64,000 bases of DNA from Verrucomicrobiia bacterium (GTDB lineage Bacteria > Patescibacteriota > Saccharimonadia > Saccharimonadales > JAGQNK01), in assembly GCA_035489575.1 (NCBI GenBank), contig DATHJY010000011.1:148514-212513 (forward strand). The letters run 5' to 3'. Shown in pieces: positions 49,497-62,297 of this stretch. Made by a program: the position numbers and the translations under genes. The first letter of the stretch is position 1; each line of letters starts with the position of its first letter. The notes beneath the pieces are model-generated. The model did no database searches, had not been told where the DNA came from, and worked only from the letters and a program-made list of their open reading frames with translations.

Positions 49497-50311
49497 TGGG
49501 TGCAATTGACCAAGATCCATGGTTTTTGAGTGACAAGCTAGAAGGCAAATACCCCGTTGCATCGCCAGATGAGTTGGCCGATGAATGGCACGCCTACACA
49601 GAACGAGAAACGCACGCACTACAGGGTGTGTTAGGTGCCTACGCCAAACCTGTCGGGGAAGTATGTGCCGTCGCCTCTATCGATTTATGCGAAGTAACGC
49701 GTGACACAGCCGTAAGCCTTGGCGATTTGGTCGGCGAACCACTCGAACGCGGACAGTACTCAGAGGGCACCTGGTATTCTGTCGAAAACATGGGGTTAGA
49801 TTTTGAATACTCAGTCGTACTTGGTGGGCTCCAACACCTCATGAACAACGACCTCGTAGGAGCCATCCCAGGAATTGACGAGGTGAGCCACACCTTGCGT
49901 GGCTGGCGAGAGCAAGGCGTCTATATGGCGGCCAATACATCTACCTTGCCCGGCTGCGAACTTGCTACTATCCGTCATCACCTCGAAAAAGATCTGAAAG
50001 GATGCTTTGACGCCCTTCTTCTACCTCGCAACTACGACGGCAGAGGGAAAATGACCAAGGCGCAGGCTCTGGATGTGCTCGGCCAAGAAGCCGGGATAGA
50101 CATAGGGGCGCTGCCACTGGTACACATTGACGACGCTACCCACCATGTCCAGGGATTTATTGATCACTTCGGGGACCATCCGACAAGCGCATTCCTAATG
50201 CCAGCACACAACTACAACCAAGCACCCGTGGCAGAGATGCGCTGCGAAGATCCGCCTGAGGCATTCGCACGAGCACACGAATTCTTACAAAAACAAGGAG
50301 TACTGCAATGA
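49496..50311 (+). CDS. hypothetical protein, possibly HAD/NT5C-like nucleotidase fold
   Basis: Overlapping start and stop with both neighbours. IDLCEV aligns where DxDxV is expected, and HIDD occurs late in the sequence. Weak. Confidence 0.35.
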   Translation: MGAIDQDPWFLSDKLEGKYPVASPDELADEWHAYTERETHALQGVLGAYAKPVGEVCAVASIDLCEVTRDTAVSLGDLVGEPLERGQYSEGTWYSVENMGLDFEYSVVLGGLQHLMNNDLVGAIPGIDEVSHTLRGWREQGVYMAANTSTLPGCELATIRHHLEKDLKGCFDALLLPRNYDGRGKMTKAQALDVLGQEAGIDIGALPLVHIDDATHHVQGFIDHFGDHPTSAFLMPAHNYNQAPVAEMRCEDPPEAFARAHEFLQKQGVLQ

Positions 50312-52644
50312 GCGAAAAAGGTGTGTTTCTAGTCATCGAGGGCACTGACGGATCAGGCAAGGGTACCCAGTTTAAATTGCTAGAGGAACACTTACGCCAG
50401 CAGGGTCACGACGTGGTGACGTGTGATTTTCCACAGTACGATCAGCCCTCTAGCTTTTTTGTACGCGAATACCTAAACGGCAAGTACGGCACTGCGGACG
50501 AAGTAGGCCCCTATACCGGTTCGCTCTTTTACGCCCTAGACCGCTACCACGCTGCCTCCCAGATCCGGGAAGCTCTGGAAGCCGGCAAGGTAGTGCTAGC
50601 CAACCGCTTTACGGGCAGCAACATGGCCCACCAAGGCACCAAGTTCAACCACGCCGAAGAACGCCGGGGCTATTTTATCTGGTTGGACAACCTCGAGTTC
50701 CAGATGCTGGGCATCCCGCGCCCAGACAAGAGTTTCGTACTCCGGGTGCCAGCCGAGATCGCCCAAAAACTAGTAGACCAAAAAGAGCAGCGCAGCTACA
50801 CCGATAAAAAACGCGATATCCACGAGGCCGACCTAGGCCACCTGCAAAAAGCCGTCCAAGTCTACGATGACCTATGTCAGCTATTTCCCAAGGACTTCCA
50901 GCGGCTGGACTGTGTGCGAGGCGACACACTGCTTTCTATCGACCAAGTTCAAAATATGCTCCGCAAAACTATCCAGCCACTGCTACCAAAACCAGCTGGC
51001 AAGAAATCAGCTGCCACCACGGCAAAAGCCCCCAGTAGTATCAAGAAGCCAGACAACCCGTACGTCAAAAAGACCAGTCATGGCTGGGAAGTGACAGAGG
51101 CCGGCAAGCAGTTCCTAGAAGCAGCCATAACCAACGTAGACGGCGATGTCTATGCCTTCAAAGATAAGCTAAGCACGCTTACGGTGGCAGCAGCCATGGC
51201 CAGACTCAGTCGCCGCGGGGACGACATGCGTGTCACCATGCTGGACGAATTTGCTATGCACGAGGGCAAAGACGAAGGCCTGATCCACCGCGTAATTACC
51301 GCCTATGGGGACGACTCCGTCCAACAGCTAGTGGGCCAACACATCGTGGTAGAGAACGCTAGCAACCTACTGACCAAACAGCTCGAATGGGGACGCTTGG
51401 CGTCCTACCTAGAACAGTCCACCCGCTATATTTACTTTGACCAGAAAGATGCCAAAGGGCAATACAAATACTACACACCAGATCATATAGATGAGCTGAC
51501 CACGGCCAAATACACCGCCACCATGGATAGCATTTTTGACACCTACTCGTCCATGGCCCGCGATCTGACAAATTATTTGCAGATCCACTCATCTACCCCC
51601 AAAGAAGAGCAAGACGGTGCCTGGCGCGGGGCCATCCGGGCTCAAGCCTGCGATGCCATCCGGGCAACGCTGCCCGTAGCCACCAAGTCTACCGTGGGTA
51701 TTTTTGCCAGCGGCCAGGCGCTAGAGATGCTTATCATGCGTCTGCGGGCCAGCGAAAGCAAAGAAGCCCAAGCCGTTGGCGAGCAAGTTCTGCAAGAAGC
51801 CCGCAAAGTTATCCCAACCTTCCTGGAGCGAGCCGACAAGCCCGAACGTGGTGGTGCCACCACCGCCTACCTGTCTGACAACCGCAAAGCCATGAAGTCA
51901 GTGGCCAATCGATACCTACCAGACACCCACAGTAACGGCCACCAAGCCGTTACCCTGCACAGCGTCTGGCCCCGCAAAGAACTAGACCTGGTGCCACACA
52001 TGCTCTACGAATCGACGCAGCTGTCACTAGAAGAAATCACCAAAGAAGTAAACACCTGGCCCATAGACAGAAAGCTCGAAGTATTCAACACCTACATAGG
52101 AGAGCGCCTGAATCGCCGGCACCGTCCGGCCCGGGCATTGGAGCAGGCACACTACACCTGGGATCTGCTGTGTGACTACGGCATTTTCCGTGACCTGCAG
52201 CGCCACCGCATGGTGGACGACCTACAGTGGCAAGCGCTGACCCCCCGATACGGCTACGAAATACCCAAGCTGGTAGAAGACGCCGACCTGACCGAATCGT
52301 TCGAGAAGTGTTTTGACCTGTCTGCCAGGTTGTATTCCACACTCCAGGCCGCCGGCTATCTCTACGAAGCCCAGTATGCCACCTTGTTGGGACACCGCAT
52401 GCGCTGGAAGATTACCTATAATGCCCGCGAAGCATTTCACCTGCACGAACTGCGTACCAGCCCCCAGGGACACCCCGGCTACCGCAAACTCGTGCTCGAA
52501 ATGCACCAGAAACTGGCCGAGGTTCACCCCATGCTGGCCGAAGCCATGAAGTTTGTGAACCAAGGGGAAGACCCCGAGCTAACCCGTCTGGCAGCCGAAC
52601 GCTACACCCAGTTCAAGCTGCAGCAGATGCCGGAAAATATCTAA
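50308..52644 (+). CDS. fusion protein: thymidylate kinase plus large FAD-dependent thymidylate synthase (ThyX-like)
   Basis: N-terminal FLVIEGTDGSGKGTQ...DRYHAASQ...NMAHQG is Tmk-like. C-terminal ~560 aa carry FRDLQRHRM and NAREAFHLHELRTSPQGHPGYR, which are ThyX-type blocks. Confidence 0.75.
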   Translation: MSEKGVFLVIEGTDGSGKGTQFKLLEEHLRQQGHDVVTCDFPQYDQPSSFFVREYLNGKYGTADEVGPYTGSLFYALDRYHAASQIREALEAGKVVLANRFTGSNMAHQGTKFNHAEERRGYFIWLDNLEFQMLGIPRPDKSFVLRVPAEIAQKLVDQKEQRSYTDKKRDIHEADLGHLQKAVQVYDDLCQLFPKDFQRLDCVRGDTLLSIDQVQNMLRKTIQPLLPKPAGKKSAATTAKAPSSIKKPDNPYVKKTSHGWEVTEAGKQFLEAAITNVDGDVYAFKDKLSTLTVAAAMARLSRRGDDMRVTMLDEFAMHEGKDEGLIHRVITAYGDDSVQQLVGQHIVVENASNLLTKQLEWGRLASYLEQSTRYIYFDQKDAKGQYKYYTPDHIDELTTAKYTATMDSIFDTYSSMARDLTNYLQIHSSTPKEEQDGAWRGAIRAQACDAIRATLPVATKSTVGIFASGQALEMLIMRLRASESKEAQAVGEQVLQEARKVIPTFLERADKPERGGATTAYLSDNRKAMKSVANRYLPDTHSNGHQAVTLHSVWPRKELDLVPHMLYESTQLSLEEITKEVNTWPIDRKLEVFNTYIGERLNRRHRPARALEQAHYTWDLLCDYGIFRDLQRHRMVDDLQWQALTPRYGYEIPKLVEDADLTESFEKCFDLSARLYSTLQAAGYLYEAQYATLLGHRMRWKITYNAREAFHLHELRTSPQGHPGYRKLVLEMHQKLAEVHPMLAEAMKFVNQGEDPELTRLAAERYTQFKLQQMPENI

Positions 52645-54810: not shown

Positions 54811-54891
54811 ATGCGTTTTAACCATGCTAACAGTTTGCTCCTCCTCAGCCTTAACGGGCTGTGCTTCAGCAGGGTTGAAGCCAAGGGTTAG
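54811..54891 (+). CDS. putative Leu-responsive leader peptide (26 aa)
   Basis: MRFNHANSLLLLSLNGLCFSRVEAKG. Four consecutive Leu codons at 54835-46 and two more downstream. Embedded in alternative hairpins. Confidence 0.5.
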   Translation: MRFNHANSLLLLSLNGLCFSRVEAKG

Positions 54892-54920: not shown

Positions 54921-54944
54921 AGGCTTCAACCAGAAGTCTTTTTT
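54921..54944 (+). terminator. attenuator terminator
   Basis: AGGCTTC-aacca-GAAGTCT followed by TTTTT. The 5' arm can alternatively pair with TTGAAGCC at 54875-82. Confidence 0.6.
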
Positions 54945-54963: not shown

Positions 54964-55200
54964 ATGGCCGCCGAAGGATTAACAGTAGAGCAGGGCGTAT
55001 TAAGAGACCCGAACATGGCAGATGCAGAGCACACTCGACGCGTTGCCACGCTCTCGGGGTACCCCAGCATGCAACAAAGAATAGCAGCAGCCTCTATGGA
55101 TAAGGTTGATACAGTGCCGGTAGACGAGGTAACGGATATTCCTGATCTTGCCCGGCGGATGGCGATTGCTAGTACTGTGACGGTCGATCACGTCCTGTAG
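54964..55200 (+). CDS. hypothetical small acidic protein
   Basis: 78-aa ORF with RBS TAGGAGAAA. Confidence 0.45.
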   Translation: MAAEGLTVEQGVLRDPNMADAEHTRRVATLSGYPSMQQRIAAASMDKVDTVPVDEVTDIPDLARRMAIASTVTVDHVL

Positions 55201-55205
55201 GGTCG

Positions 55206-55234
55206 TTGACAAAAAAACAGAAGGAGAGTAACTT
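55206..55234 (+). promoter_or_regulatory. promoter TTGACA-17-TAACTT, 7 nt before ATG
   Basis: -35 at 55206-11 and -10 at 55229-34, with leader ATG at 55242. Confidence 0.4.
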
Positions 55235-55241
55235 AAGCCTC

Positions 55242-55289
55242 ATGACACAGAGACAGCTCGTGATTGAGGTGGTGATTCTCCCCGGCTAG
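55242..55289 (+). CDS. putative branched-chain amino acid leader peptide (15 aa)
   Basis: MTQRQLVIEVVILPG. Seven of eight central codons are Leu, Val or Ile. Confidence 0.5.
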   Translation: MTQRQLVIEVVILPG

Positions 55290-55328
55290 CGGGTCTCTTG
55301 TGCATGCCTAAAGATTTTGACAAGAAAC

Positions 55329-55356
55329 ATCCCGCGAAACCCGCGGGATTTTTATT
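55329..55356 (+). terminator. attenuator terminator
   Basis: ATCCCGCG-aaacc-CGCGGGAT followed by TTTTTATT. GCGGG at 55289-93 can pair with CCCGC at 55331-35 as an antiterminator. Confidence 0.65.
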
Positions 55357-55376: not shown

Positions 55377-55574
55377 ATGAGCGCAGAAACAGAACCAGGA
55401 ATACCAAACTATATGAATGGTGAGGTACTTGCACTGTCCGATACAGACACCCCGGCAACCGAACCGGAAATTGACACGGACACTCCCGTTCAACCGCACG
55501 CTGACGCCATCGATGACATTCGCAACGAGCGAAATTCCAACTACGGCTATGGCGGGGAGAACTTCGGTGTCTAA
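55377..55574 (+). CDS. hypothetical small acidic protein
   Basis: 65-aa ORF with a strong RBS (AAGGAG). Overlaps the ridA start. Confidence 0.4.
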   Translation: MSAETEPGIPNYMNGEVLALSDTDTPATEPEIDTDTPVQPHADAIDDIRNERNSNYGYGGENFGV

Positions 55575-55938
55575 GGTATTTGGCCCCTACAGCCCCATCA
55601 GACAGGCCGGAAGCCTGTACTACGTGTCTGGGCAAGTAGGCGTGGACCCAGACACCAACCAGTGCGGCCACACCATAGAGGAACAAACCGGACAGGTTAT
55701 GGCCAACATGCAGACAGTTCTAGCATCCGCAGGACTTGATATAAGTGACGTAGTCAAATGCACCATCTACCTCAAGGATATGAGCGACTTCGCAAAAATG
55801 AACGACGTCTACGCTGGCTTTTTTGAGCCGCCATTCCCAGCCCGCGGTACCGTAGCCGTAAAAGACCTGCCGCACGTCGGGGGCGAGGCAAATATTCTGG
55901 TAGAGATCGAAGCCATTGCTTATAAGGAATCAGCGTGA
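55549..55938 (+). CDS. ridA: RidA/YjgF-family reactive intermediate deaminase
   Basis: FGPYSPIRQAGSLYYVSGQVGVDP...PARGTVAVKDLP...VEIEAIA. Start is ATG 55549, or GTG 55567 which has GGGGAGA upstream. Confidence 0.8.
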   Translation: MAGRTSVSKVFGPYSPIRQAGSLYYVSGQVGVDPDTNQCGHTIEEQTGQVMANMQTVLASAGLDISDVVKCTIYLKDMSDFAKMNDVYAGFFEPPFPARGTVAVKDLPHVGGEANILVEIEAIAYKESA

Positions 55939-57650
55939 GCGAACTTGATGGTGCCCAAGCGCTGGTTAGTACCCTAGAGAAACATGGGGTCGAATATATC
56001 TTTGGCTATTCCGGCGGTGCCGCTATCCCTATTTTTGATGCCTTGATCACCACCAAGACCAAGATCAAACTGATCCTGACCCGTCACGAGCAAGGCGCTG
56101 CCCACATGGCTGACGGCTATGCTCGGGCCAGCGGCAAACCAGGCATCGTCCTAGTCACCAGCGGGCCAGGTGCCGGTAACACCGTCACTGGGCTCATGAC
56201 CGCCCAGATGGACAGCGTGCCTATTATCGTTATTTCGGGCCAGCAGATCAGATCCATGCTGGGCATGGATGCCTTCCAAGAGGCCGACATCTTTAATATG
56301 ACCATGCCAGTGGTCAAGCACAGCTACCTGATCCGCGAGACCAACGATATCCCCAGTATTGTGGACGAAGCCTTCCATATCGCTACCACTGGCCGGCCCG
56401 GCCCGGTGCTGATAGATATCCCTAAAGATGTCAGCAGTGGCGACTTTAGCGGGGAATTCGACAAGCCCATCGATTTGCCGGCCTACAAACAACCCGCCAC
56501 TATCGACCATAAGAAAATTCAGGCCATAGCCGACGCCTGGGCCAAGGCCAAAAATCCAGTCATTCTGGCGGGGCATGGCGTGTTGATTTCTGGTGCTCAC
56601 AAACAATTGACCAAATTAGCAGAGCAAATGGACACGCCCGTTACCACCACACTGCTAGGCAAGGGAGCCTTCCCTGAAACCCACCAGCTGTCGCTGGGCA
56701 TGCTGGGTATGCACGGCACCGCTTACGCCAACAAAGCCATGGTAGAGTGCGACTTTTTGCTAAACATTGGCTCGCGGTTCGACGACCGTATTGTTGGTGC
56801 GCCCGCTGCCTTCTGCAAAGACGCCTTTATTGCCCATGTCGATATTGACGCCAGCGAGATTGGCAAGATGATCCACCCCAACGCGGCCGTAGTGGCCGAC
56901 GCCAAGGCTGGCATAGAAGCACTCAGCAAAACTGTCAAGGCCCAAAAGCATAATGACTGGAACAAACACCTAGATGAATACCGCCAGAAATACCCCCTAA
57001 CCTACAGCGACAAAAACGGTCTGACCATGCAAAAGGTAATAGACGAAGTCTACAAATTTACCAAAGGCAAGGCTATCGCTGTAACAGACGTAGGACAGCA
57101 TCAGATGTGGGCCGCCCAATTCTACAAAACCGATGACCCGCACATGTGGCTCAGCTCTGGCGGTGCCGGCACCATGGGTTACGGCTTTCCTGGCGCCATT
57201 GGCGCCCAATTTGCTCGCCCCAACGACGATGTTATAGCTTTTGTGGGCGACGGTGGTTTTCAAATGACACTGTTTGAACTAGCTACCGCTTGCATCCATA
57301 AGTTGCCCCTCAAAATTTTTGTCCTGAACAATCACTATCTGGGCATGGTGCGTCAGTGGCAAGAGCTGTTCTTTGACAACCGCGAGAGCGGTGTAGATCT
57401 AGAGGGCAACCCCGACTTTGCCGCTCTGGCCGAGGCCTACGGTGCCAAAGGCGTCAACATAACGTCAGCAGATCAAATTGATGCCAAGCTCAAAGAGGCC
57501 TGGGCAGTCACCGACCGGCCAGTGGTTATCAACGTAGAAGTCATCAAGACTGATAACGTCTACCCCATGGTGCCTGCCGGTGCCCCACTAGAGAGCATGA
57601 TCGTTACCGCACCAACCACAAAACTAGCCAAACCCACAGGGAGTACTTAA
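55935..57650 (+). CDS. ilvB: acetolactate synthase large subunit
   Basis: GTGA overlap with the ridA stop. TPP motif GGAGTMGYGFPGAIGAQ...GDGGFQM...NN. Confidence 0.92.
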   Translation: MSELDGAQALVSTLEKHGVEYIFGYSGGAAIPIFDALITTKTKIKLILTRHEQGAAHMADGYARASGKPGIVLVTSGPGAGNTVTGLMTAQMDSVPIIVISGQQIRSMLGMDAFQEADIFNMTMPVVKHSYLIRETNDIPSIVDEAFHIATTGRPGPVLIDIPKDVSSGDFSGEFDKPIDLPAYKQPATIDHKKIQAIADAWAKAKNPVILAGHGVLISGAHKQLTKLAEQMDTPVTTTLLGKGAFPETHQLSLGMLGMHGTAYANKAMVECDFLLNIGSRFDDRIVGAPAAFCKDAFIAHVDIDASEIGKMIHPNAAVVADAKAGIEALSKTVKAQKHNDWNKHLDEYRQKYPLTYSDKNGLTMQKVIDEVYKFTKGKAIAVTDVGQHQMWAAQFYKTDDPHMWLSSGGAGTMGYGFPGAIGAQFARPNDDVIAFVGDGGFQMTLFELATACIHKLPLKIFVLNNHYLGMVRQWQELFFDNRESGVDLEGNPDFAALAEAYGAKGVNITSADQIDAKLKEAWAVTDRPVVINVEVIKTDNVYPMVPAGAPLESMIVTAPTTKLAKPTGST

Positions 57651-57656
57651 GATCTC

Positions 57657-57815
57657 ATGCAATGCAATTCACAAGATTCAAGACAGATGATTTTTGAGCG
57701 AAATCAACAAAATCGAGTAAGGGGTAATTGTCATTACACCGCACGAGATCTTGTTAGATTGCAGCCAAAAAGGGCTGTTTTGAAATTATGCAATTGCATT
57801 GTAGGAGGTCTTTGA
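57657..57815 (+). CDS. possible 52-aa basic Cys-containing ORF filling the ilvB-ilvN spacer
   Basis: ATG 57657 with GGGAG 13 nt upstream. TGA at 57813-15 overlaps the ilvN ATG (TGATG). Below the ORF-track cutoff. Confidence 0.25.
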   Translation: MQCNSQDSRQMIFERNQQNRVRGNCHYTARDLVRLQPKRAVLKLCNCIVGGL

Positions 57816-58069
57816 TGCAGCACGTTGACCACACCCTTGTCTTGACCGTTCGCAACCAGCCAGGCGTCTTGGTGCGCATTGCTCACGTCTTTGCCCGCCG
57901 GGGCTGCAACATTCGCTCGTTGCGCGTAGAACCTCACGCCGACGAGCAATGGTCTACCATGACCATCATAGTCCGTGACGTGCCACGCCTAGACCAGATG
58001 ATCCACCAACTGCAAAAGCTCATAGATGTCTCTACCGTCAAAGACCACACCGCCGTCCAAAAAAACTAA
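57815..58069 (+). CDS. ilvN: acetolactate synthase small subunit (short, ACT-only)
   Basis: RBS AGGAGG. HTLVLTVRNQPGVLVRIAHVFARRGCNIRSL is the ACT-domain signature. Confidence 0.75.
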   Translation: MQHVDHTLVLTVRNQPGVLVRIAHVFARRGCNIRSLRVEPHADEQWSTMTIIVRDVPRLDQMIHQLQKLIDVSTVKDHTAVQKN

Positions 58070-58770
58070 CGCCTGAACGTCGTCCCTATCTGGCCATTCA
58101 TGGCTTGTTCGATGGCATTGTCAGCCCGGCCGTGGGCTATCCACGTTTCAATGCCGGCAGCAGTGGTCAGAGCCGCGGCGTCAAATTTGGTCACCATACC
58201 ACCGGTCGCCCCGCTGCTGTTAGTGTCACCCGCCAGCTGTCTATAGGCATCTATATCGTCTATGGTCGAGATCACCGAGCTAGGGTCGCTCAAGTCTGAC
58301 AACACGCCGTGCACATCGGTGAGCATTCCAAATCGAGCCCGCACCCCCATGCCGCTGGCTTGCGTCGCAATAGCAGCCCCCACCAGGTCGTTACTGACGT
58401 ACCGGCTTTCTTTTGCGAGCCTGTCATCGTGAGCGTTGGTCACGGCAATGCGGCCAGCACGAGCGGCCGCAATAACATGACCACACCCGTTTTCTGAGTC
58501 CAGCTGGTGGTCTGTCAGCAAATAACCCTCCGTCTGGTGCTGGGTATTGGCATCCCATACCTCTAGCACACCCTCCCACCCAACATCTGGCAGCTGCTTA
58601 CGGGCGGCAGACGAAACCAAGATGACGCCACGCCCCGTCAGCCTGATCTTATCTATCTGTCTAGCTATACCCTCAACAGAGGTCTGGTCTAAACAGTCAT
58701 CTTCTACGATGGTGCTGGTGCCCACCTTGAGCACCAGCACTTCACTCATTTCTTTCATATATGTTTCCAA
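58066..58770 (-). CDS. proB: amino-acid kinase family protein, glutamate 5-kinase-like (no PUA domain)
   Basis: VLKVGTSTI, ILVSSAA, SNDLVGAAIA, MLTDVHGVLSD and GATGGMVTKFDAA follow ProB blocks. Confidence 0.65.
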   Translation of the reverse strand: METYMKEMSEVLVLKVGTSTIVEDDCLDQTSVEGIARQIDKIRLTGRGVILVSSAARKQLPDVGWEGVLEVWDANTQHQTEGYLLTDHQLDSENGCGHVIAAARAGRIAVTNAHDDRLAKESRYVSNDLVGAAIATQASGMGVRARFGMLTDVHGVLSDLSDPSSVISTIDDIDAYRQLAGDTNSSGATGGMVTKFDAAALTTAAGIETWIAHGRADNAIEQAMNGQIGTTFRR

Positions 58771-58993: not shown

Positions 58994-59022
58994 TTGACAA
59001 GCAACCAAAAAAGAGGATGATA
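58994..59022 (+). promoter_or_regulatory. promoter TTGACA-17-ATGATA, 6 nt before ATG
   Basis: -35 at 58994-99 and -10 at 59017-22, with leader ATG at 59029. Confidence 0.4.
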
Positions 59023-59028
59023 GATACG

Positions 59029-59073
59029 ATGACTCACCGCACGATTATTGCTATCATTGCCAACCCGCTCTAG
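59029..59073 (+). CDS. putative Thr/Ile leader peptide (14 aa)
   Basis: MTHRTIIAIIANPL. Four Ile and two Thr codons, upstream of threonine dehydratase. Confidence 0.45.
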   Translation: MTHRTIIAIIANPL

Positions 59074-59143: not shown

Positions 59144-59452
59144 ATGAGTGCACTCGAACAAGGAAACGCCTCAGACCCCACCGACCTGGTTGGCGGTGAA
59201 TATGTGGTGGGTTTTTTGGAGGACAAAGTCCAGGCCCTGGACGAAGCGCCTGATACATCAACAGAGGGAGTAACCCCACCACCATACGCAGACATACGCT
59301 GGCCCGAGGATAGACCAGCTCAACCTCCCGTACGACTCAGCCAAGAAGTAGTCGTGGTCATAAATGGCCAGCCAGTCATCCGTGAAGAGTTATATGCACG
59401 CACCTATTATGGTTCGTCGTCAGTTCCCCCAAGACAGGGGTTATCATCATGA
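59144..59452 (+). CDS. hypothetical acidic/Pro-rich protein
   Basis: 102-aa ORF with RBS AAGGAG. ATGA overlap with ilvA. Confidence 0.45.
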   Translation: MSALEQGNASDPTDLVGGEYVVGFLEDKVQALDEAPDTSTEGVTPPPYADIRWPEDRPAQPPVRLSQEVVVVINGQPVIREELYARTYYGSSSVPPRQGLSS

Positions 59453-60942
59453 AAGACCCTCTTAAGCAAACCCTCCTGGCACGTGTCTATGATGTTGCCA
59501 CAGAGTCGCCGCTGCAGCGGGCCACCAAACTCAGCACACAAGTAGGTGCCGATGTCTATTTGAAGCGCGAGGACTTACAGCCCGTGCACTCCTTCAAGCT
59601 GCGTGGAGCCTACAACAAAATAGCCAGCCTCAGCCCCGCCGAAAGAGCCAAGGGTGTTATTGCGGCCAGCGCCGGCAACCATGCCCAAGGCGTAGCTCTG
59701 AGTGCTCAGAAACTCGGTATCCGGGCTCTCATAGTCATGCCTACCACTACCCCCAGCATCAAGGTAGATGCCGTCAAAAGCTACGGCGCCCAGGTAGAGC
59801 TGGTTGGCGACAGCTATTCTGACGCCTACGATCACTGCATGCAGCGGGTCAAAGAAACCGGCATGACTTTTGTACATCCCTTTGACGATCCACTGGTCAT
59901 AGCCGGGCAGGGAACTATCGGTCGCGAGTTGCTAGAGCAACTGCCAGATATGACCCATGTCTTTGTTCCTGTCGGTGGCGGGGGGCTCATCGCCGGTGTC
60001 AGTCAGTTCATAAAAGGTATCCGCCCAGATGTAAAAATCATCGGTGTCGAGCCCGAAGACAGCAATGCCATGCAGCAGTCGTTACAGGCCGGCAAGGTAG
60101 TCACCCTGGACCACGTAGGGATCTTTGCCGATGGCGTAGCTGTTAAGAGCGTTGGCCAGCTCACTTTCCAGATCACCCAGAAATATGTAGACCAGGTCAT
60201 CACCGTCAGTACCGATCAAATGTGTGCTGCCATCAAATCACTATTCGAGGATACTCGCAGCATTGTCGAACCAGCCGGTGCCCTAGCCGCAGCTGGCGTG
60301 CAACACTACAAGCTACCAAAGGACGCCAAGGCCGTAGCTATCTGTTCTGGTGCCAACGTCTCCTTTGAGCGCTTGCAGCAAATTGCCGAACGTACCCTGA
60401 TAGGCTCCGGCAAAGAAGCGTTGTTTGCCGTCACCATGCCTGAACAAGCTGGTGCCCTACACACCTTTTGCCAACAGGTGCTGAATGGCCATAGCATCAC
60501 TGAGTTCAATTATCGGCTCAACAAGCGCGAAGGTGCCCATGTATTGGTTGGTGTATCTGTAGCCAACGAAGCAGACAAGCTTGCATTCATGAAAAAGATG
60601 CAGCAAGATGACTACGAGCACATAGACTTATCAGGCGACGATATCGCCAAAGAGCACGTCCGGCACATGGTAGGGGGACCAGCTGATCAGGCTAAGTCTG
60701 AGCGCTTGTATCAGATCGACTTTCCGGAGCGACCGGGTGCCCTGGGCGGCTTCCTGGCCGCCGTTGGAACAGCCTGGAACATCAGCGCCTTTCACTACCG
60801 CAATGCGGCCAGTGACACCGGCAACGTATTGATAGGCTTCGAAGTAGATAACCCCACAAAGCTAGAGGACAAACTGTCCCAAGCAGGCTACCAATGGCGA
60901 AGCGTAGACCACAGTCCTTCACTTAAAGTATTTATTGAGTAA
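59449..60942 (+). CDS. ilvA: biosynthetic threonine dehydratase (with C-terminal regulatory domains)
   Basis: PLP-lysine motif LQPVHSFKLRGAYNK, the GGGGL loop and two ACT-like C-terminal repeats. Confidence 0.92.
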   Translation: MKDPLKQTLLARVYDVATESPLQRATKLSTQVGADVYLKREDLQPVHSFKLRGAYNKIASLSPAERAKGVIAASAGNHAQGVALSAQKLGIRALIVMPTTTPSIKVDAVKSYGAQVELVGDSYSDAYDHCMQRVKETGMTFVHPFDDPLVIAGQGTIGRELLEQLPDMTHVFVPVGGGGLIAGVSQFIKGIRPDVKIIGVEPEDSNAMQQSLQAGKVVTLDHVGIFADGVAVKSVGQLTFQITQKYVDQVITVSTDQMCAAIKSLFEDTRSIVEPAGALAAAGVQHYKLPKDAKAVAICSGANVSFERLQQIAERTLIGSGKEALFAVTMPEQAGALHTFCQQVLNGHSITEFNYRLNKREGAHVLVGVSVANEADKLAFMKKMQQDDYEHIDLSGDDIAKEHVRHMVGGPADQAKSERLYQIDFPERPGALGGFLAAVGTAWNISAFHYRNAASDTGNVLIGFEVDNPTKLEDKLSQAGYQWRSVDHSPSLKVFIE

Positions 60943-61277: not shown

Positions 61278-61964
61278 ATGACTGACCCCCAGGAAAGCAC
61301 CCACACCCAGCCGAGCTTCTACATCGAGAACCCGGCGGACGATGCCAAGGCCAACGAGATCGTCGTGGTCTTCAGCTTCCAGCTGTTCGGCACCGAAATC
61401 AGCGCCATCCGCGCCTACGCCAGGCAGTTCGAGGGCTTCGGCAGCATCCACGAGCAGGAGGGCAGCACCCAGCTGACCTTCAATCTGCTACCGCAGTTCA
61501 ACTACACGGAGCAGCGTGACATCGTCGTCAAGGCCATAATGGCCAGCGTCGAAGGGATCGAGAAGATCGAGGAGCCGAAGGTCAAGAGGTACTTCATGCC
61601 GCTACTCAAGCGCGCCGTGCCCGATGTGCTGGCTCCCGAGGTCGTCAGTGGCCCGTGCTATAAGGTGCACAAGGGCGCCTATGCCGCCGCTCATCGTGTG
61701 ATCAGCTTGAGTGTCCGCATCACCGATGATCAGCACGAGCAGGTCAGCCAGATGCTCGATCGATCACCGGCGACCCGCCGCATCGACCCCTTCACCACGC
61801 AGTTCGTGGTCTTCTACAACGACGATCACTTCGTCGATGCCGGCCTGGAAGCACTGATCCACGAGACGGTGAAGAGCGTCTTCGGTGACGACATGACACT
61901 CGTATCCAACGACGCCCTCTTCGAGTCCACCGCCGTTCCGGCGAAGGAGCAGCCCGAGCAATAG
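61278..61964 (+). CDS. GC-rich hypothetical protein
   Basis: 228 aa. RBS TAGGAGGA. Extended -10 TGaGATAAT upstream. Strongly GC3-biased codons unlike the flanking rpl and ilv genes. Confidence 0.55.
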   Translation: MTDPQESTHTQPSFYIENPADDAKANEIVVVFSFQLFGTEISAIRAYARQFEGFGSIHEQEGSTQLTFNLLPQFNYTEQRDIVVKAIMASVEGIEKIEEPKVKRYFMPLLKRAVPDVLAPEVVSGPCYKVHKGAYAAAHRVISLSVRITDDQHEQVSQMLDRSPATRRIDPFTTQFVVFYNDDHFVDAGLEALIHETVKSVFGDDMTLVSNDALFESTAVPAKEQPEQ

Positions 61965-62068: not shown

Positions 62069-62297
62069 CCCTACATACAATTGACTTTTATTAACAGATA
62101 CGGTAAGCTCTCTTAGTTACCAAAGACAGCGACGGGCAACAGCCTTGATAATGTCGCCGAGGTGCAAACAATTCGTTTTTTGTTTTGTGAGCACGCTTAG
62201 AAGCTTCTTGGTAACAGGAAGCTTCTTTGGTTTCTTAAGCAAGGATTTACCGGTCGAGAGTCTTTGCTCAAACTCATAACAATAGGGAGAAGCATTA

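Follow-up and report, generated by a model that had tools for sequence, protein, structure and literature searches.

The enterobacterial ilvBN and ilvGMEDA operons are headed by leader peptides (ivbL and ilvL, respectively) with Leu/Val or Leu/Val/Ile codons, which are followed by an intrinsic terminator. Mycobacteria use leaderless polycysteine upstream ORFs (uORFs) as attenuators, in which the translation speed of a short ORF sets the expression of the downstream operon. For the ilvBNC operon of Corynebacterium glutamicum, the leader peptide IlvL (MTIIRLVVVTARRLP) and the ilvB-II RNA motif have been described (PMC11857589, PMC10272879), and multivalent attenuation of the enterobacterial branched-chain genes is cited in PMC10272879. 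Here, we analyze a leader element that precedes ridA, ilvB, and ilvN in the window, by which we mean the whole stretch of 64,000 nucleotides under study. We consider it highly likely that this element works as a leader-peptide attenuator, in which a ribosome controls the transcription of ridA-ilvB-ilvN according to the charging of Leu, Val, and Ile tRNAs, a function that a sequence-only reading of the same DNA had proposed and that conservation and alternative pairings now support.

The element (55206-55356) is the second leader of the sequence-only reading, and all the coordinates assigned to it there agree with our direct reading of the sequence (Table 1). The ORF, ATG ACA CAG AGA CAG CTC GTG ATT GAG GTG GTG ATT CTC CCC GGC TAG, encodes MTQRQLVIEVVILPG, with Leu, Val, or Ile codons at seven of eight consecutive positions, and it is the sole short ORF of this composition (7/8 Leu/Ile/Val) before a strict terminator in the 64-kb window. 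Rarity of the regulatory codons was considered as a further clue and is uninformative: among Leu codons CUC is a minor one (14%), and GUG and AUU are ordinary. The hairpin at 55329-49, ATCCCGCG-AAACC-CGCGGGAT in DNA letters, is directly followed by TTTT-A-TT and was listed by the terminator scan with eight pairs, six of them G-C. The leader RNA folds more stably than its shuffles (z = -2.55). Three features of the element had been missed by the earlier reading, namely the leaderless layout, the ~13-bp anti-antiterminator, and the middle hairpin.

Table 1. Features of the second leader element and of the genes that follow it, in window coordinates.
Feature	Position	Strand	Remarks
Promoter P2: -35 TTGACA (55206-11), 17-nt spacer, -10-like TAACTT (55229-34)	55206-55234	+	Conserved layout
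Leader ORF MTQRQLVIEVVILPG and TAG	55242-55289	+	15 codons; stop 55287-89; ATG 7 nt past the -10 hexamer
Region 1, 5' end of the ORF, AUGACACAGAGAC	55242-55254	+	Predicted 5' arm of the anti-antiterminator; partner 55293-55305
Regulatory codons CUC GUG AUU GAG GUG GUG AUU CUC (L V I E V V I L)	55257-55280	+	Sequence and conservation
Small hairpin CCCG-GCUAG-CGGG, stop codon in the loop	55281-55293	+	CCCG 55281-84, CGGG 55290-93; helix 100% paired in the alignment
Region 2a, GCGGG, 3' side of the small hairpin	55289-55293	+	Direct reading
Region 2b, GUCUCUUGUGCAU	55293-55305	+	Predicted partners (folding): region 1, or ACAAGA 55320-25 via UCUUGU 55296-301
Antiterminator domain, GCGGG (55289-93):CCCGC (55331-35), with middle hairpin UCUUGU/ACAAGA inside	55289-55335	+	Minimum-energy folds
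Intrinsic terminator AUCCCGCG-AAACC-CGCGGGAU, then U-run	55329-55356	+	Terminator scan and alignment
AAGGAG ribosome-binding site and 65-aa ORF	55365-70 (site), 55377-55574 (ORF)	+	Sequence and gene calls
ridA	55567-55938	+	Pfam Ribonuc_L-PSP and contig gene calls
ilvB	55935-57650	+	Pfam TPP_enzyme_N/M/C and contig gene calls
ilvN	57816-58069	+	Pfam ACT_AHAS_ss and contig gene calls

The promoter had been drawn, from sequence reading, as TTGACA at 55206-11, 17 nt, TAACTT at 55229-34, and 7 nt to the ATG at 55242, and a layout of this kind (TTGACA, 17 nt, xAxxxT, 6-7 nt to ATG) recurs in nine of nine homologues. TTGACA, the 17-nt spacing, and A2 and T6 of the -10 hexamer do not vary among the eight aligned homologues, and L211, the ninth, is laid out alike. 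This geometry predicts a leaderless ORF, with the ATG at or beside the transcript start; a Shine-Dalgarno-like sequence is absent in L209 and L146.

Conservation is the decisive evidence that the element is real. Nine distinct homologues carry it, each directly 5' of ridA or of a short ORF that is followed by ridA, and the genes downstream are in all cases ridA with ilvBN and/or ilvA. Comparative alignment 5' of ridA/ilvB shows that promoter geometry, ORF, alternative pairings, and terminator are kept in the nine. The leader ORF stays in frame throughout at 14-19 codons, every length difference amounts to whole codons, and an in-frame stop at or just past GCGGG is conserved. The peptide core L-V-I-E-V-V-I-L is kept across the homologues as L-(V/A)-I-(E/V)-V-(V/I/N), and substitutions in the leader include amino-acid-preserving and synonymous ones (V to I, V to A, GAG to GAA, GTG to GTA). 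Between the window and L082, ~8 of ~100 leader positions differ from codon 6 to the T-run (our own count) while the flanking genes have a synonymous divergence (dS) of ~1 substitution per site, a comparison by which the leader appears to be under purifying selection.

Eight of the homologues were found via protein homology of neighbouring genes and L146 via a DNA pattern only; the pattern required GCGGG and CCCGC, so L146 is not independent for those motifs. In metagenomes, the pattern TAGCGGGTCTC...CCCGC...GCGGG returned 119 stretches, nearly all of them chance matches in GC-rich DNA, among which were two new elements, L097 (= L209, later also reached via RidA) and L146, and two further copies of known leaders (L119 = L084 and L170 = L085). 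The covariance model R1 recovers all nine homologues and gave no match in 29 loci (L002-L030) that hold IlvB relatives from other phyla. Against GTDB genomes, the best IlvB relatives among the matches listed are 64% identical and belong to Spirochaetia, Verrucomicrobiota, and Kiritimatiellia. The regulatory codons show almost no synonymous change among close relatives, a pattern that RNA-level constraint alone would fit too.

Such a pattern raises the question of whether a ribosome takes part at all. A conditional terminator could instead be operated by a small-molecule riboswitch, a T-box-like tRNA sensor, or an RNA-binding protein, with the ORF incidental, and we regard this as very unlikely. 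It would account for the unusual conservation of the ORF nucleotides, synonymous sites included, among closer relatives, and there is precedent in the ppGpp riboswitches that precede and govern ilvB in some bacteria (PMC10272879). Against it, no Rfam riboswitch or T-box matches the element even at E <= 10, and the RNA is short (~110 nt), with no conserved multi-helix ligand pocket. The conserved ATG at the predicted start, the stop at or past GCGGG, the whole-codon changes, and the amino-acid-preserving substitutions count against it as well, and in every one of the cluster's three leaders (see below) the amino-acid bias matches its branch of the pathway.

Folding predicts three structures of the leader RNA, for the off state, the on state, and a ribosome that has reached the stop codon. 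The full-length minimum-energy fold contains the anti-antiterminator, a ~13-bp helix between codons 1-5 and a post-stop segment (55242-54 with 55293-55305). The off fold, computed from AUG to U-run and comprising this region 1:2 helix and the terminator, is the minimum-energy structure in seven of the eight homologues of the first folding set; L208 and L211 fold into the terminator without the 1:2 helix. The region 1:2 duplex beats shuffles in all nine homologues, and in L207, the most divergent, it reaches -13.5 kcal/mol with its own partner as against -2.4 to -6.9 with the partners of the others. L082 and L084 form this helix imperfectly, and L211 has a weak duplex. When the RNA is cut before the 3' arm of the terminator, GCGGG:CCCGC and the middle hairpin become the minimum-energy on fold in eight of nine homologues unmasked and in nine of nine with nt 1-33 of the same truncated RNA masked. 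With a mask for a ribosome on the stop codon, GCGGG is covered and the terminator alone is left to form.

The alignment bears on both the off and the on state. Off-state pairs are formed in 86.8% of cells (28-50% with slid partners), with two-sided changes at 6 pairs and in 13 cells (shuffles give 3.6 pairs, 17/500 reaching 6, and 5.1 cells, 0/500 reaching the observed count) and a covariation score of 0.188 versus 0.109, counts that lean towards the structure because they come from a model-guided alignment (A4), fitted to the model structure, of nine mutually related sequences. A MAFFT alignment (A1) was left out of the pair counts because the shorter L082 ORF and the arms of the terminator are wrongly placed in it. 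Three pairs are changed on both sides in the region 1 helix and three in the terminator stem, which is 95.8% paired. The two pairings proposed from sequence alone both hold up: CCCG:CGGG is paired throughout the alignment, and GCGGG:CCCGC is paired in 45/45 cells, with one compensatory change, G-C to A-U in L211. This outer helix is only 5 bp long, and with its one compensatory event the observed value is reached by 52 of 500 shuffles; the middle hairpin UCUUGU/ACAAGA receives modest support against shuffles (mean z -1.5, p < 0.05 in three of nine sequences). Terminator and antiterminator share CCCGC in all nine homologues. In silico, the antiterminator is mutually exclusive with the terminator, and its covariation is thin.

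One might suppose that the hairpin merely terminates the upstream unit, which is a 78-aa ORF in the window and leuA in relatives, with a promoter that is a chance match and a 15-codon ORF that is untranslated or has no sensing role. Some facts lend themselves to this. The upstream gene has no terminator before the hairpin, so the hairpin would end read-through transcripts anyway; the consensus promoter scan did not list P2, whose TAACTT matches TATAAT at three of six positions and makes a weak -10; and a loose scan found terminator-like hairpins in the window no more often than chance (4 found versus 4.7 expected), so the hairpin by itself is not evidence. We nevertheless give hardly any credence to this alternative, since the spacer sequences vary among the nine homologues and the -35, the spacer length of 17 nt, and the distance to the ATG do not, and a conserved promoter 120 nt 5' of a terminator is sensible only if termination is conditional. 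The ORF also stays in frame through its whole-codon length changes with its Leu/Val/Ile content kept, and the conserved alternative pairings overlap the 5' arm of the terminator.

For the leader-peptide attenuator, we infer where transcription starts, that the ORF is translated, that ribosomes stall on it, and that termination is regulated. The proposed course of events is the following. P2 (55206-34) would start the transcript at the ATG (55242) or 1 nt before it, and a ribosome would load directly on the 5' AUG with no need of a Shine-Dalgarno sequence. When branched-chain amino acids are plentiful, the ribosome would pass the eight regulatory codons and reach the UAG, where it would cover GCGGG and the next segment (region 2); once the ribosome is gone, region 2 would be captured by region 1 (55242-54) and CCCG. 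Either way, the 5' arm of the terminator would be left free, the hairpin at 55329-49 would form, and transcription would stop at the U-run. A shortage of Leu, Val, or Ile would stall the ribosome at codons 6-11, where it covers region 1, leaving region 2 free to form GCGGG:CCCGC and UCUUGU:ACAAGA. The terminator would then be blocked, and RNA polymerase would read into the 65-aa ORF, ridA, ilvB, and ilvN. A switch of this kind probably allows synthesis of the branched-chain enzymes only when Leu, Val, and Ile run short.

The 65-aa ORF that lies first past the terminator has a stop that overlaps the GTG start of ridA (55567), has one relative only in 5.8 billion proteins, and shows a dN/dS of 0.17 against L082. 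This overlap admits another model, in which the leader acts mainly on translation: the helix between 5' end and post-stop segment would control leaderless initiation, coupling would run via the 65-aa ORF into ridA, and the hairpin would be a constitutive partial terminator. The region 1:2 helix does sequester the 5' AUG in the fold, and the same concern has been voiced for hairpin H1 of C. glutamicum ilvBNC (PMC11857589). Yet L146, L207, and L211 keep the leader with no 65-aa ORF, ridA following the terminator directly, and the sharing of CCCGC by terminator and antiterminator in nine homologues is a hallmark of transcriptional switching, so we judge control mainly at translation to be most improbable. 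The small ORFs past the three terminators of the cluster were also compared as candidates for one protein family, which was rejected, the matches being close orthologues only. A protein search with the 228-aa ORF at 61278-61964 found no relative.

The wider arrangement modifies one part of the sequence-only reading, which had placed acetolactate synthase under two serial attenuators, together forming a multivalent control split into two units. Between the 78-aa ORF and the second promoter there is no terminator, and read-through transcripts from the first promoter would meet both attenuators. The proposal as a whole is only partly supported: a conserved promoter of its own drives the second leader, which itself carries Leu, Val, and Ile codons, and acetolactate synthase is not dependent on the first attenuator. 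In L082, L208, L211, and the P0011 contig (where synteny is conserved), leuA lies between the two leaders, and in the first three we read a Leu leader just upstream of leuA. Because leuA follows it in relatives, the Leu leader is most simply the attenuator of leuA. In the window, the 78-aa ORF occupies the place of leuA between the leaders, and leuA was not found anywhere in the 64 kb. As a candidate leuA remnant, the 78-aa ORF was rejected (no similarity by tblastn).

A third leader, rich in Ile, lies upstream of ilvA, and the bias of each leader matches its branch: Leu-rich before leuA (in relatives), Ile-rich before ilvA, and Leu/Val/Ile before acetolactate synthase. L206 and L210 offer a natural codon swap, in which the Leu-leader RNA scaffold carries Ile/Val/Leu codons upstream of ilvB. 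The Ile leader was tried as a member of the R1 family and rejected, with no R1 match at E <= 1, though its layout is alike. It is possible, and somewhat short of probable in our estimate, that at least three families of leaderless attenuators (Leu, Leu/Val/Ile, and Ile), each with its own promoter and with AUG as the transcript 5' end, organize the branched-chain genes in a Saccharibacteria-like lineage (candidate phyla radiation). Their scaffolds would be modular, as the Leu scaffold with Ile/Val/Leu codons before ilvB in L206/L210 suggests, and a fast-evolving small protein gene past each terminator would be translationally coupled to the first enzyme gene.

With this analysis, an intergenic element of an uncultivated lineage, in which gene regulation is essentially unstudied, gains a mechanistic annotation, and the R1 model could seed an Rfam entry. 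The three leaders in one 5-kb cluster with branch-matching bias, and the one scaffold with swapped codons in relatives, serve as natural controls. If the lineage is Saccharibacteria-like, these reduced-genome bacteria would keep part of branched-chain amino-acid synthesis, place it under fine control, and use leaderless translation coupled to transcription. Should the three-family reading be true and the taxonomy hold, ribosome-mediated attenuation would be described for the first time in the candidate phyla radiation, with the implication of tight transcription-translation coupling and leaderless initiation in that radiation. The mechanism is a textbook one with close analogues in Corynebacterium, and the gain is one of breadth, not of principle.

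Set against known RNA families, the element is a new sequence family whose probable mechanism is of a known kind; no Rfam family matches it. At gathering thresholds, Rfam 15 finds only tRNA and L10_leader in the whole window, and at E <= 10 the segment 54500-55700 gives no Leu, ilvB, or other leader family, the best hit being Trp_leader, below threshold. Membership in Trp_leader (RF00513) was rejected: the cmscan match reaches 26.5 bits where the gathering score is 41, and it derives almost wholly from the terminator hairpin.

The logic proposed here is nonetheless shared with several described systems. As in the four-region model of the E. coli trp leader, region 1 lies in the ORF, 1:2 would form the anti-antiterminator, 2:3 the antiterminator, and 3:4 the terminator, with region 2 blocked whenever a ribosome stands on the stop codon; the amino acids sensed differ, and the regulatory codons here lie downstream of region 1, not inside it. 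The enterobacterial ivbL and ilvL leaders have in common with this one the multivalent attenuation of branched-chain genes by a leader peptide, whereas they rely on a ribosome-binding site for translation and, with 32 codons, have about double the length of the 15-codon, predicted leaderless ORF described here, to which their sequences are unrelated. The mycobacterial polycysteine uORFs sense cysteine, by a reported mechanism that is not a classical intrinsic-terminator switch. The ilvB-OMG and Leptospira ilvB motifs also place short uORFs with branched-chain codons and then a terminator 5' of ilvB, but they are different sequence families from other phyla (PMC10272879), and they are absent from the cmscan matches at E <= 10.

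By layout and logic, the closest known system appears to be the leaderless uORF attenuator of C. glutamicum ilvBNC (PMC11857589, PMC10272879). Both loci have a uORF of 15 codons, many of them for Ile, Val, or Leu, and an anti-antiterminator/antiterminator/terminator logic with the first hairpin over the initiation region, and both are placed to control acetohydroxyacid synthase genes; in C. glutamicum, transcription begins on the start codon or 1 nt ahead of it and the mRNA lacks a ribosome-binding site, as is predicted here. The resemblance of the leader peptide to IlvL (MT..R.LV...LP) is a lead only, and the cmscan matches at E <= 10 include none called ilvB-II. The two loci differ in host, which is here an uncultivated and probably Saccharibacteria-like bacterium, in the first regulated genes, which are a small ORF and ridA instead of ilvB, and in the distance to the first gene, which is ~20 nt past the U-run here and roughly 150 nt upstream of ilvB in C. 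glutamicum. Unlike its C. glutamicum counterpart, the element in the window belongs to a larger cluster with two further leaders of the same style.

Direct reading of the sequence bears out the coordinates that the sequence-only reading had given for the promoter (P2), leader ORF, pairing segments, hairpin and AAGGAG motif of the element (Table). In a consensus scan of the window the hairpin is terminator-like, whereas P2 is not listed because its TAACTT agrees with the -10 consensus at three positions only. Terminator-like hairpins found in the window by a loose scan are not above chance (4 observed versus 4.7 expected), and the hairpin by itself is no proof of the element. The leader ORF is the sole short ORF of the window that lies 5' of a strict terminator and has seven of eight codons for Leu, Ile or Val, and the leader RNA folds more stably than its shuffles (z = -2.55). 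No Rfam family matches the element; the top match, Trp_leader (26.5 bits against a threshold of 41), is owed to the terminator.

Features of the acetolactate synthase region, in window positions
Feature	Position	Details
Promoter P1	54772-54800	TTGTCA-17-TATGAT
Leu-rich leader	54811-54891	MRFNHANSLLLLSLNGLCFSRVEAKG; ATG 54811, TAG 54889-91
Terminator of Leu leader	54916-44	
78-aa ORF	54964-55200	no Pfam match
Element under study	55206-55356	
P2, -35	55206-11	TTGACA, 17-nt spacer
P2, -10	55229-34	TAACTT, 7 nt to ATG
Leader ORF	55242-55289	MTQRQLVIEVVILPG; TAG 55287-89
Pairing segment	55281-84	CCCG
Pairing segment	55289-93	GCGGG
Pairing segment	55290-93	CGGG
Pairing segment	55331-35	CCCGC
Terminator hairpin	55329-49	ATCCCGCG-AAACC-CGCGGGAT, then T-run
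AAGGAG motif	55365-70	5' of ATG 55377
65-aa ORF	55377-55574	
ridA	55567-55938	dN/dS 0.02 versus L082
ilvB	55935-57650	dN/dS 0.03 versus L082
ilvB/ilvN spacer	57651-57815	165 nt
ilvN	57816-58069	
Kinase-like gene	58066-58770	minus strand; 234 aa (230 aa in source-contig call)
Third promoter	58994-59021	TTGACA 58994-99, 16 nt, GATGAT 59016-21, 7 nt to ATG
Ile-rich leader	59029-59073	MTHRTIIAIIANPL; ATG 59029, TAG 59071-73
Terminator of Ile leader	59106-23	CGACCCC-GCAG-GGGGUUG, then UUUU
102-aa ORF	59144-59452	
ilvA	59449-60942	dN/dS 0.04 versus L082

The 65-aa ORF has one relative only in 5.8 billion proteins, on a syntenic contig (L082) with 82-86% DNA identity to the window. Further loci (L084, L085, L207, L208, L209, L211) were reached via RidA relatives of 62-75% identity, and L146 came from one metagenome DNA-pattern scan, which also gave L097, identical to L209 in this region. 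Together they provide nine distinct versions of the element, all either immediately 5' of ridA or separated from it by a short ORF. The comparison of the region upstream of ridA/ilvB that the sequence-only reading had proposed finds the mini-ORF and hairpin set kept in nine versions. A covariance model of the four closest sequences retrieves all nine (29-136 bits) and has no match in 29 loci with IlvB relatives of other phyla.

The promoter is kept in all nine versions as TTGACA, a spacer of exactly 17 nt but varying sequence, and a hexamer whose second base is A and sixth base T (TAACTT, TATGGT, TAAGTT, CACCAT, CACTAT, TAGCTT, TAGTCT, TACGTT, TAATTT), followed after 6-7 nt by the leader ATG. 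A start 7 nt past the -10 hexamer places the first base of the ATG at +1 or +2, and the leader ORF is therefore predicted to be leaderless; L209 and L146 have no Shine-Dalgarno-like sequence before this ATG. The Leu and Ile leaders share the layout; the distance between hexamer and ATG is 6-10 nt in the former and 7 nt in the latter.

The leader peptides of the relatives (MIKKLVIEVVNLPG in L082, MTKRNLVIEVIILPG in L208, MTQRQLVIVVNILPD in L085, MTKSKLVIEVVILPD in L084, MTQRKLVIEVVILPD in L209, MAQRQLVIEVINFSA in L146, MTQALAIEVVIIPQEQRA in L207 and MAQRKLVVEVIILPAHTGL in L211) differ in length by whole codons, and substitutions are either branched-chain preserving (V to I, V to A) or synonymous (GAG to GAA, GTG to GTA, CTC to CTA/CTT). 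The terminator stem covaries (AUCCCGCG, AGCCCCGC, AGUCCCGC, AACCCCGC, GUCCCGUUC), with a U-run always next. Between the window and L082, dS is ~1 in ridA, ilvB and ilvA, while about 8 of ~100 leader positions differ from codon 6 to the U-run (manual count), which argues for strong purifying selection on the element. The regulatory codons common to both contain about nine synonymous sites, all unchanged, and part of the constraint acts at the level of nucleotides or codon choice. Among the closer relatives, the regulatory codons (55257-55283) show nearly no synonymous change at a flanking dS of ~1, a constancy that could reflect codon-specific sensing or an RNA constraint. Glu (GAG) interrupts the Leu/Val/Ile run midway and is conserved in 8/9 sequences.

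When RNAs that begin at the AUG and end with the U-run are folded, seven of the eight homologues folded share one minimum-energy structure, the off state. In it, the 5'-terminal 13-14 nt (the AUG and codons 2-5) form a helix with the post-stop segment (helix 1:2; in the window CAUG/ACAC/AGAGAC with GUCUCU/UGUG/CAUG), CCCG and CGGG pair on either side of the stop codon, and the terminator (3:4) forms. The full-length folds of L208 and L211 contain the terminator and lack helix 1:2. With the RNA cut immediately 5' of the 3' arm of the terminator, GCGGG and CCCGC form a helix around a middle hairpin, an on state found in eight of nine sequences unmasked and in all nine with nt 1-33 masked (-11 to -17 kcal/mol masked); masking the footprint of a ribosome terminating at the stop codon leaves the terminator alone. 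The middle-hairpin stems are unrelated among relatives (UCUUGU/ACAAGA, GGUU/AACC, UGGUUU/AAACUA, UCUG/CAGA, CUAGA/UCUAG, UAGUU/AACUA), with a modest gain over shuffles (mean z -1.5; negative in 9/9, p < 0.05 in 3/9).

Pairs of the off state were counted on a model-guided alignment of nine mutually related sequences, fitted to the model structure, in which 86.8% of cells are paired versus 28-50% after a shift of the partners by 1-3 columns. Changes on both sides affect 6 pairs (3.6 in shuffles; 17/500 reach 6) and 13 cells (5.1 in shuffles; 0/500), and the covariation score is 0.188 versus 0.109 ± 0.014 (0/500 as high). The terminator (95.8% paired) and helix 1:2 (71%) each contain three covarying pairs. 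The outer helix of the antiterminator is paired in 45/45 cells, L146 having been ascertained by a pattern containing GCGGG and CCCGC; its one compensatory change (ACGGG with CCCGU in L211) is a single event, not significant alone (52/500 shuffles). The 1:2 duplex beats shuffles in every sequence (fraction as good 0.003-0.10), and region 1 of L207, the most divergent, binds its own partner at -13.5 kcal/mol and those of others at -2.4 to -6.9.

From footprint sizes, we infer that stalling with one of codons 6-11 in the A site would place the ribosome over region 1 (nt 1-14) and let region 2 enter the antiterminator, that a ribosome at the stop codon would cover region 2, and that a leader untranslated or already vacated would fold into 1:2 plus 3:4. 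A ribosome held up at the last regulatory codons would sit on GCGGG, and such stalls are expected to be less effective.

The sequence-only reading had placed acetolactate synthase under two serial attenuators, with the amino-acid response split between them. The Leu leader has a large hairpin (GGGCUGUGC with GCACAGUCC) and a segment, GGUUGAAGCC, complementary to the terminator arm GGCUUCAACC; it has no match in Rfam and is kept in L082, L084, L085, L208, L209 and L211. In L082 (4260-5825), L208, L211 and a further syntenic contig (P0011), the two leader positions are separated by a leuA gene (411-523 aa, HMGL-like), and in the first three the Leu leader reads directly 5' of it, so that the Leu leader is most simply a leuA attenuator. 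The window, L084, L085 and L209 have a short unrelated ORF at this place; the window and L082 align up to the Leu terminator, with the break precisely at 54944, and again from codon 6 (55257) of the second leader onwards, and no leuA occurs anywhere in the 64-kb window. The second leader is served by a promoter of its own and appears multivalent by itself, because Leu, Val and Ile codons are all in it. What stands of the serial arrangement is that P1 read-through transcripts would also meet the second attenuator, since no terminator stops them 5' of P2. Such transcripts would have the leader AUG at an internal position, with poor support from a ribosome-binding site, and the second element may mostly terminate them.

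The Ile leader, kept in L082 and not matched by the covariance model of the element, is predicted to be a third attenuator of the same style, followed by the 102-aa ORF and ilvA. Each leader is biased towards amino acids that match the branch downstream: Leu for leuA, Ile for ilvA, and Leu/Val/Ile for acetolactate synthase. In two relatives whose operon starts at ilvB, L206 (803-975) and L210 (307-475), the leaders MRFSEIVDIAVIVLGLRGLCFTTVEATR and MSHRADILEVIILSLRGLCFTTVEAAR are built on the Leu-leader RNA scaffold (GLxGLCF..VEA, with GGUUGAAGCC opposite GGCUUCAACC) and carry IVDIAVIVL or ILEVIIL where the Leu leader has LLLL, apparently a natural codon swap on one scaffold. The bias-to-branch match and this swap may serve as internal controls for the function of the leaders.

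The acidic 65-aa and 102-aa ORFs each follow a terminator and a strong ribosome-binding site, and their stops overlap the starts of ridA and ilvA, respectively. With dN/dS versus L082 of 0.17 and 0.31 at a dS of ~1, they look like genuine yet fast-evolving genes; their counterparts in more distant relatives are unrelated or missing. The ilvB-ilvN spacer, replaced by 4 nt in L082, folds into a single long predicted hairpin (-60.6 kcal/mol), contains a terminator-like CAGCC-AAAAAG-GGCUG-UUUU and has ATGCAA and ATGCAG at its borders. The spacer resembles an insertion through which the ilvN start was rebuilt, and no second copy was found in the window or in the relative loci examined. The kinase-like gene (weak AA_kinase match) between ilvN and the Ile leader is missing in L082, where the Ile leader lies directly 3' of ilvN. 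A 228-aa ORF between ilvA and the L10 leader (61278-61964) has no relative but itself in 5.8 billion proteins, and Rfam places an L10_leader 5' of rplJ (62102-62238; 50.2 bits, gathering score 44). A 778-aa thymidylate kinase-ThyX (Thy1) fusion (50308-52644) has the same position in L082, L083/L084, L207, L209 and the P0011 contig.

The window comes from a metagenome contig with conflicting taxonomic labels: the MAG is a "Verrucomicrobiae bacterium" at NCBI, and the syntenic L084 is labelled Limnocylindria. Ribosomal protein L10 (62298-62822) shares 74% identity with its counterpart in a "Candidatus Saccharibacteria" MAG that was submitted independently and has the ilvA-rplJ synteny in common, and several RidA relatives carry the names Saccharibacteria, Saccharimonadales or Patescibacteria; we therefore treat the lineage as probably Saccharibacteria-like. 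The best GTDB relatives of IlvB among the matches listed (64% identical) are in Spirochaetia, Verrucomicrobiota and Kiritimatiellia, a hint of foreign origin.

We found no report of attenuators in this lineage in the literature. Attenuation of ilvB by uORFs is known in Enterobacteria and Corynebacterium and has been proposed for several RNA motifs (PMC10272879), and leaderless leader peptides are known in Corynebacterium (PMC11857589). In C. glutamicum ilvBNC, the transcript starts 1 nt 5' of the start codon of a 15-residue Ile/Val/Leu leader (PMC11857589), and the first hairpin, over the initiation region, is the anti-antiterminator (PMC11857589; ilvB-II motif, PMC10272879). The anatomy predicted here fits classical four-region attenuation in the same three-hairpin leaderless form, and the element is well supported in silico as a new sequence family of the known ilvB uORF-attenuator kind.
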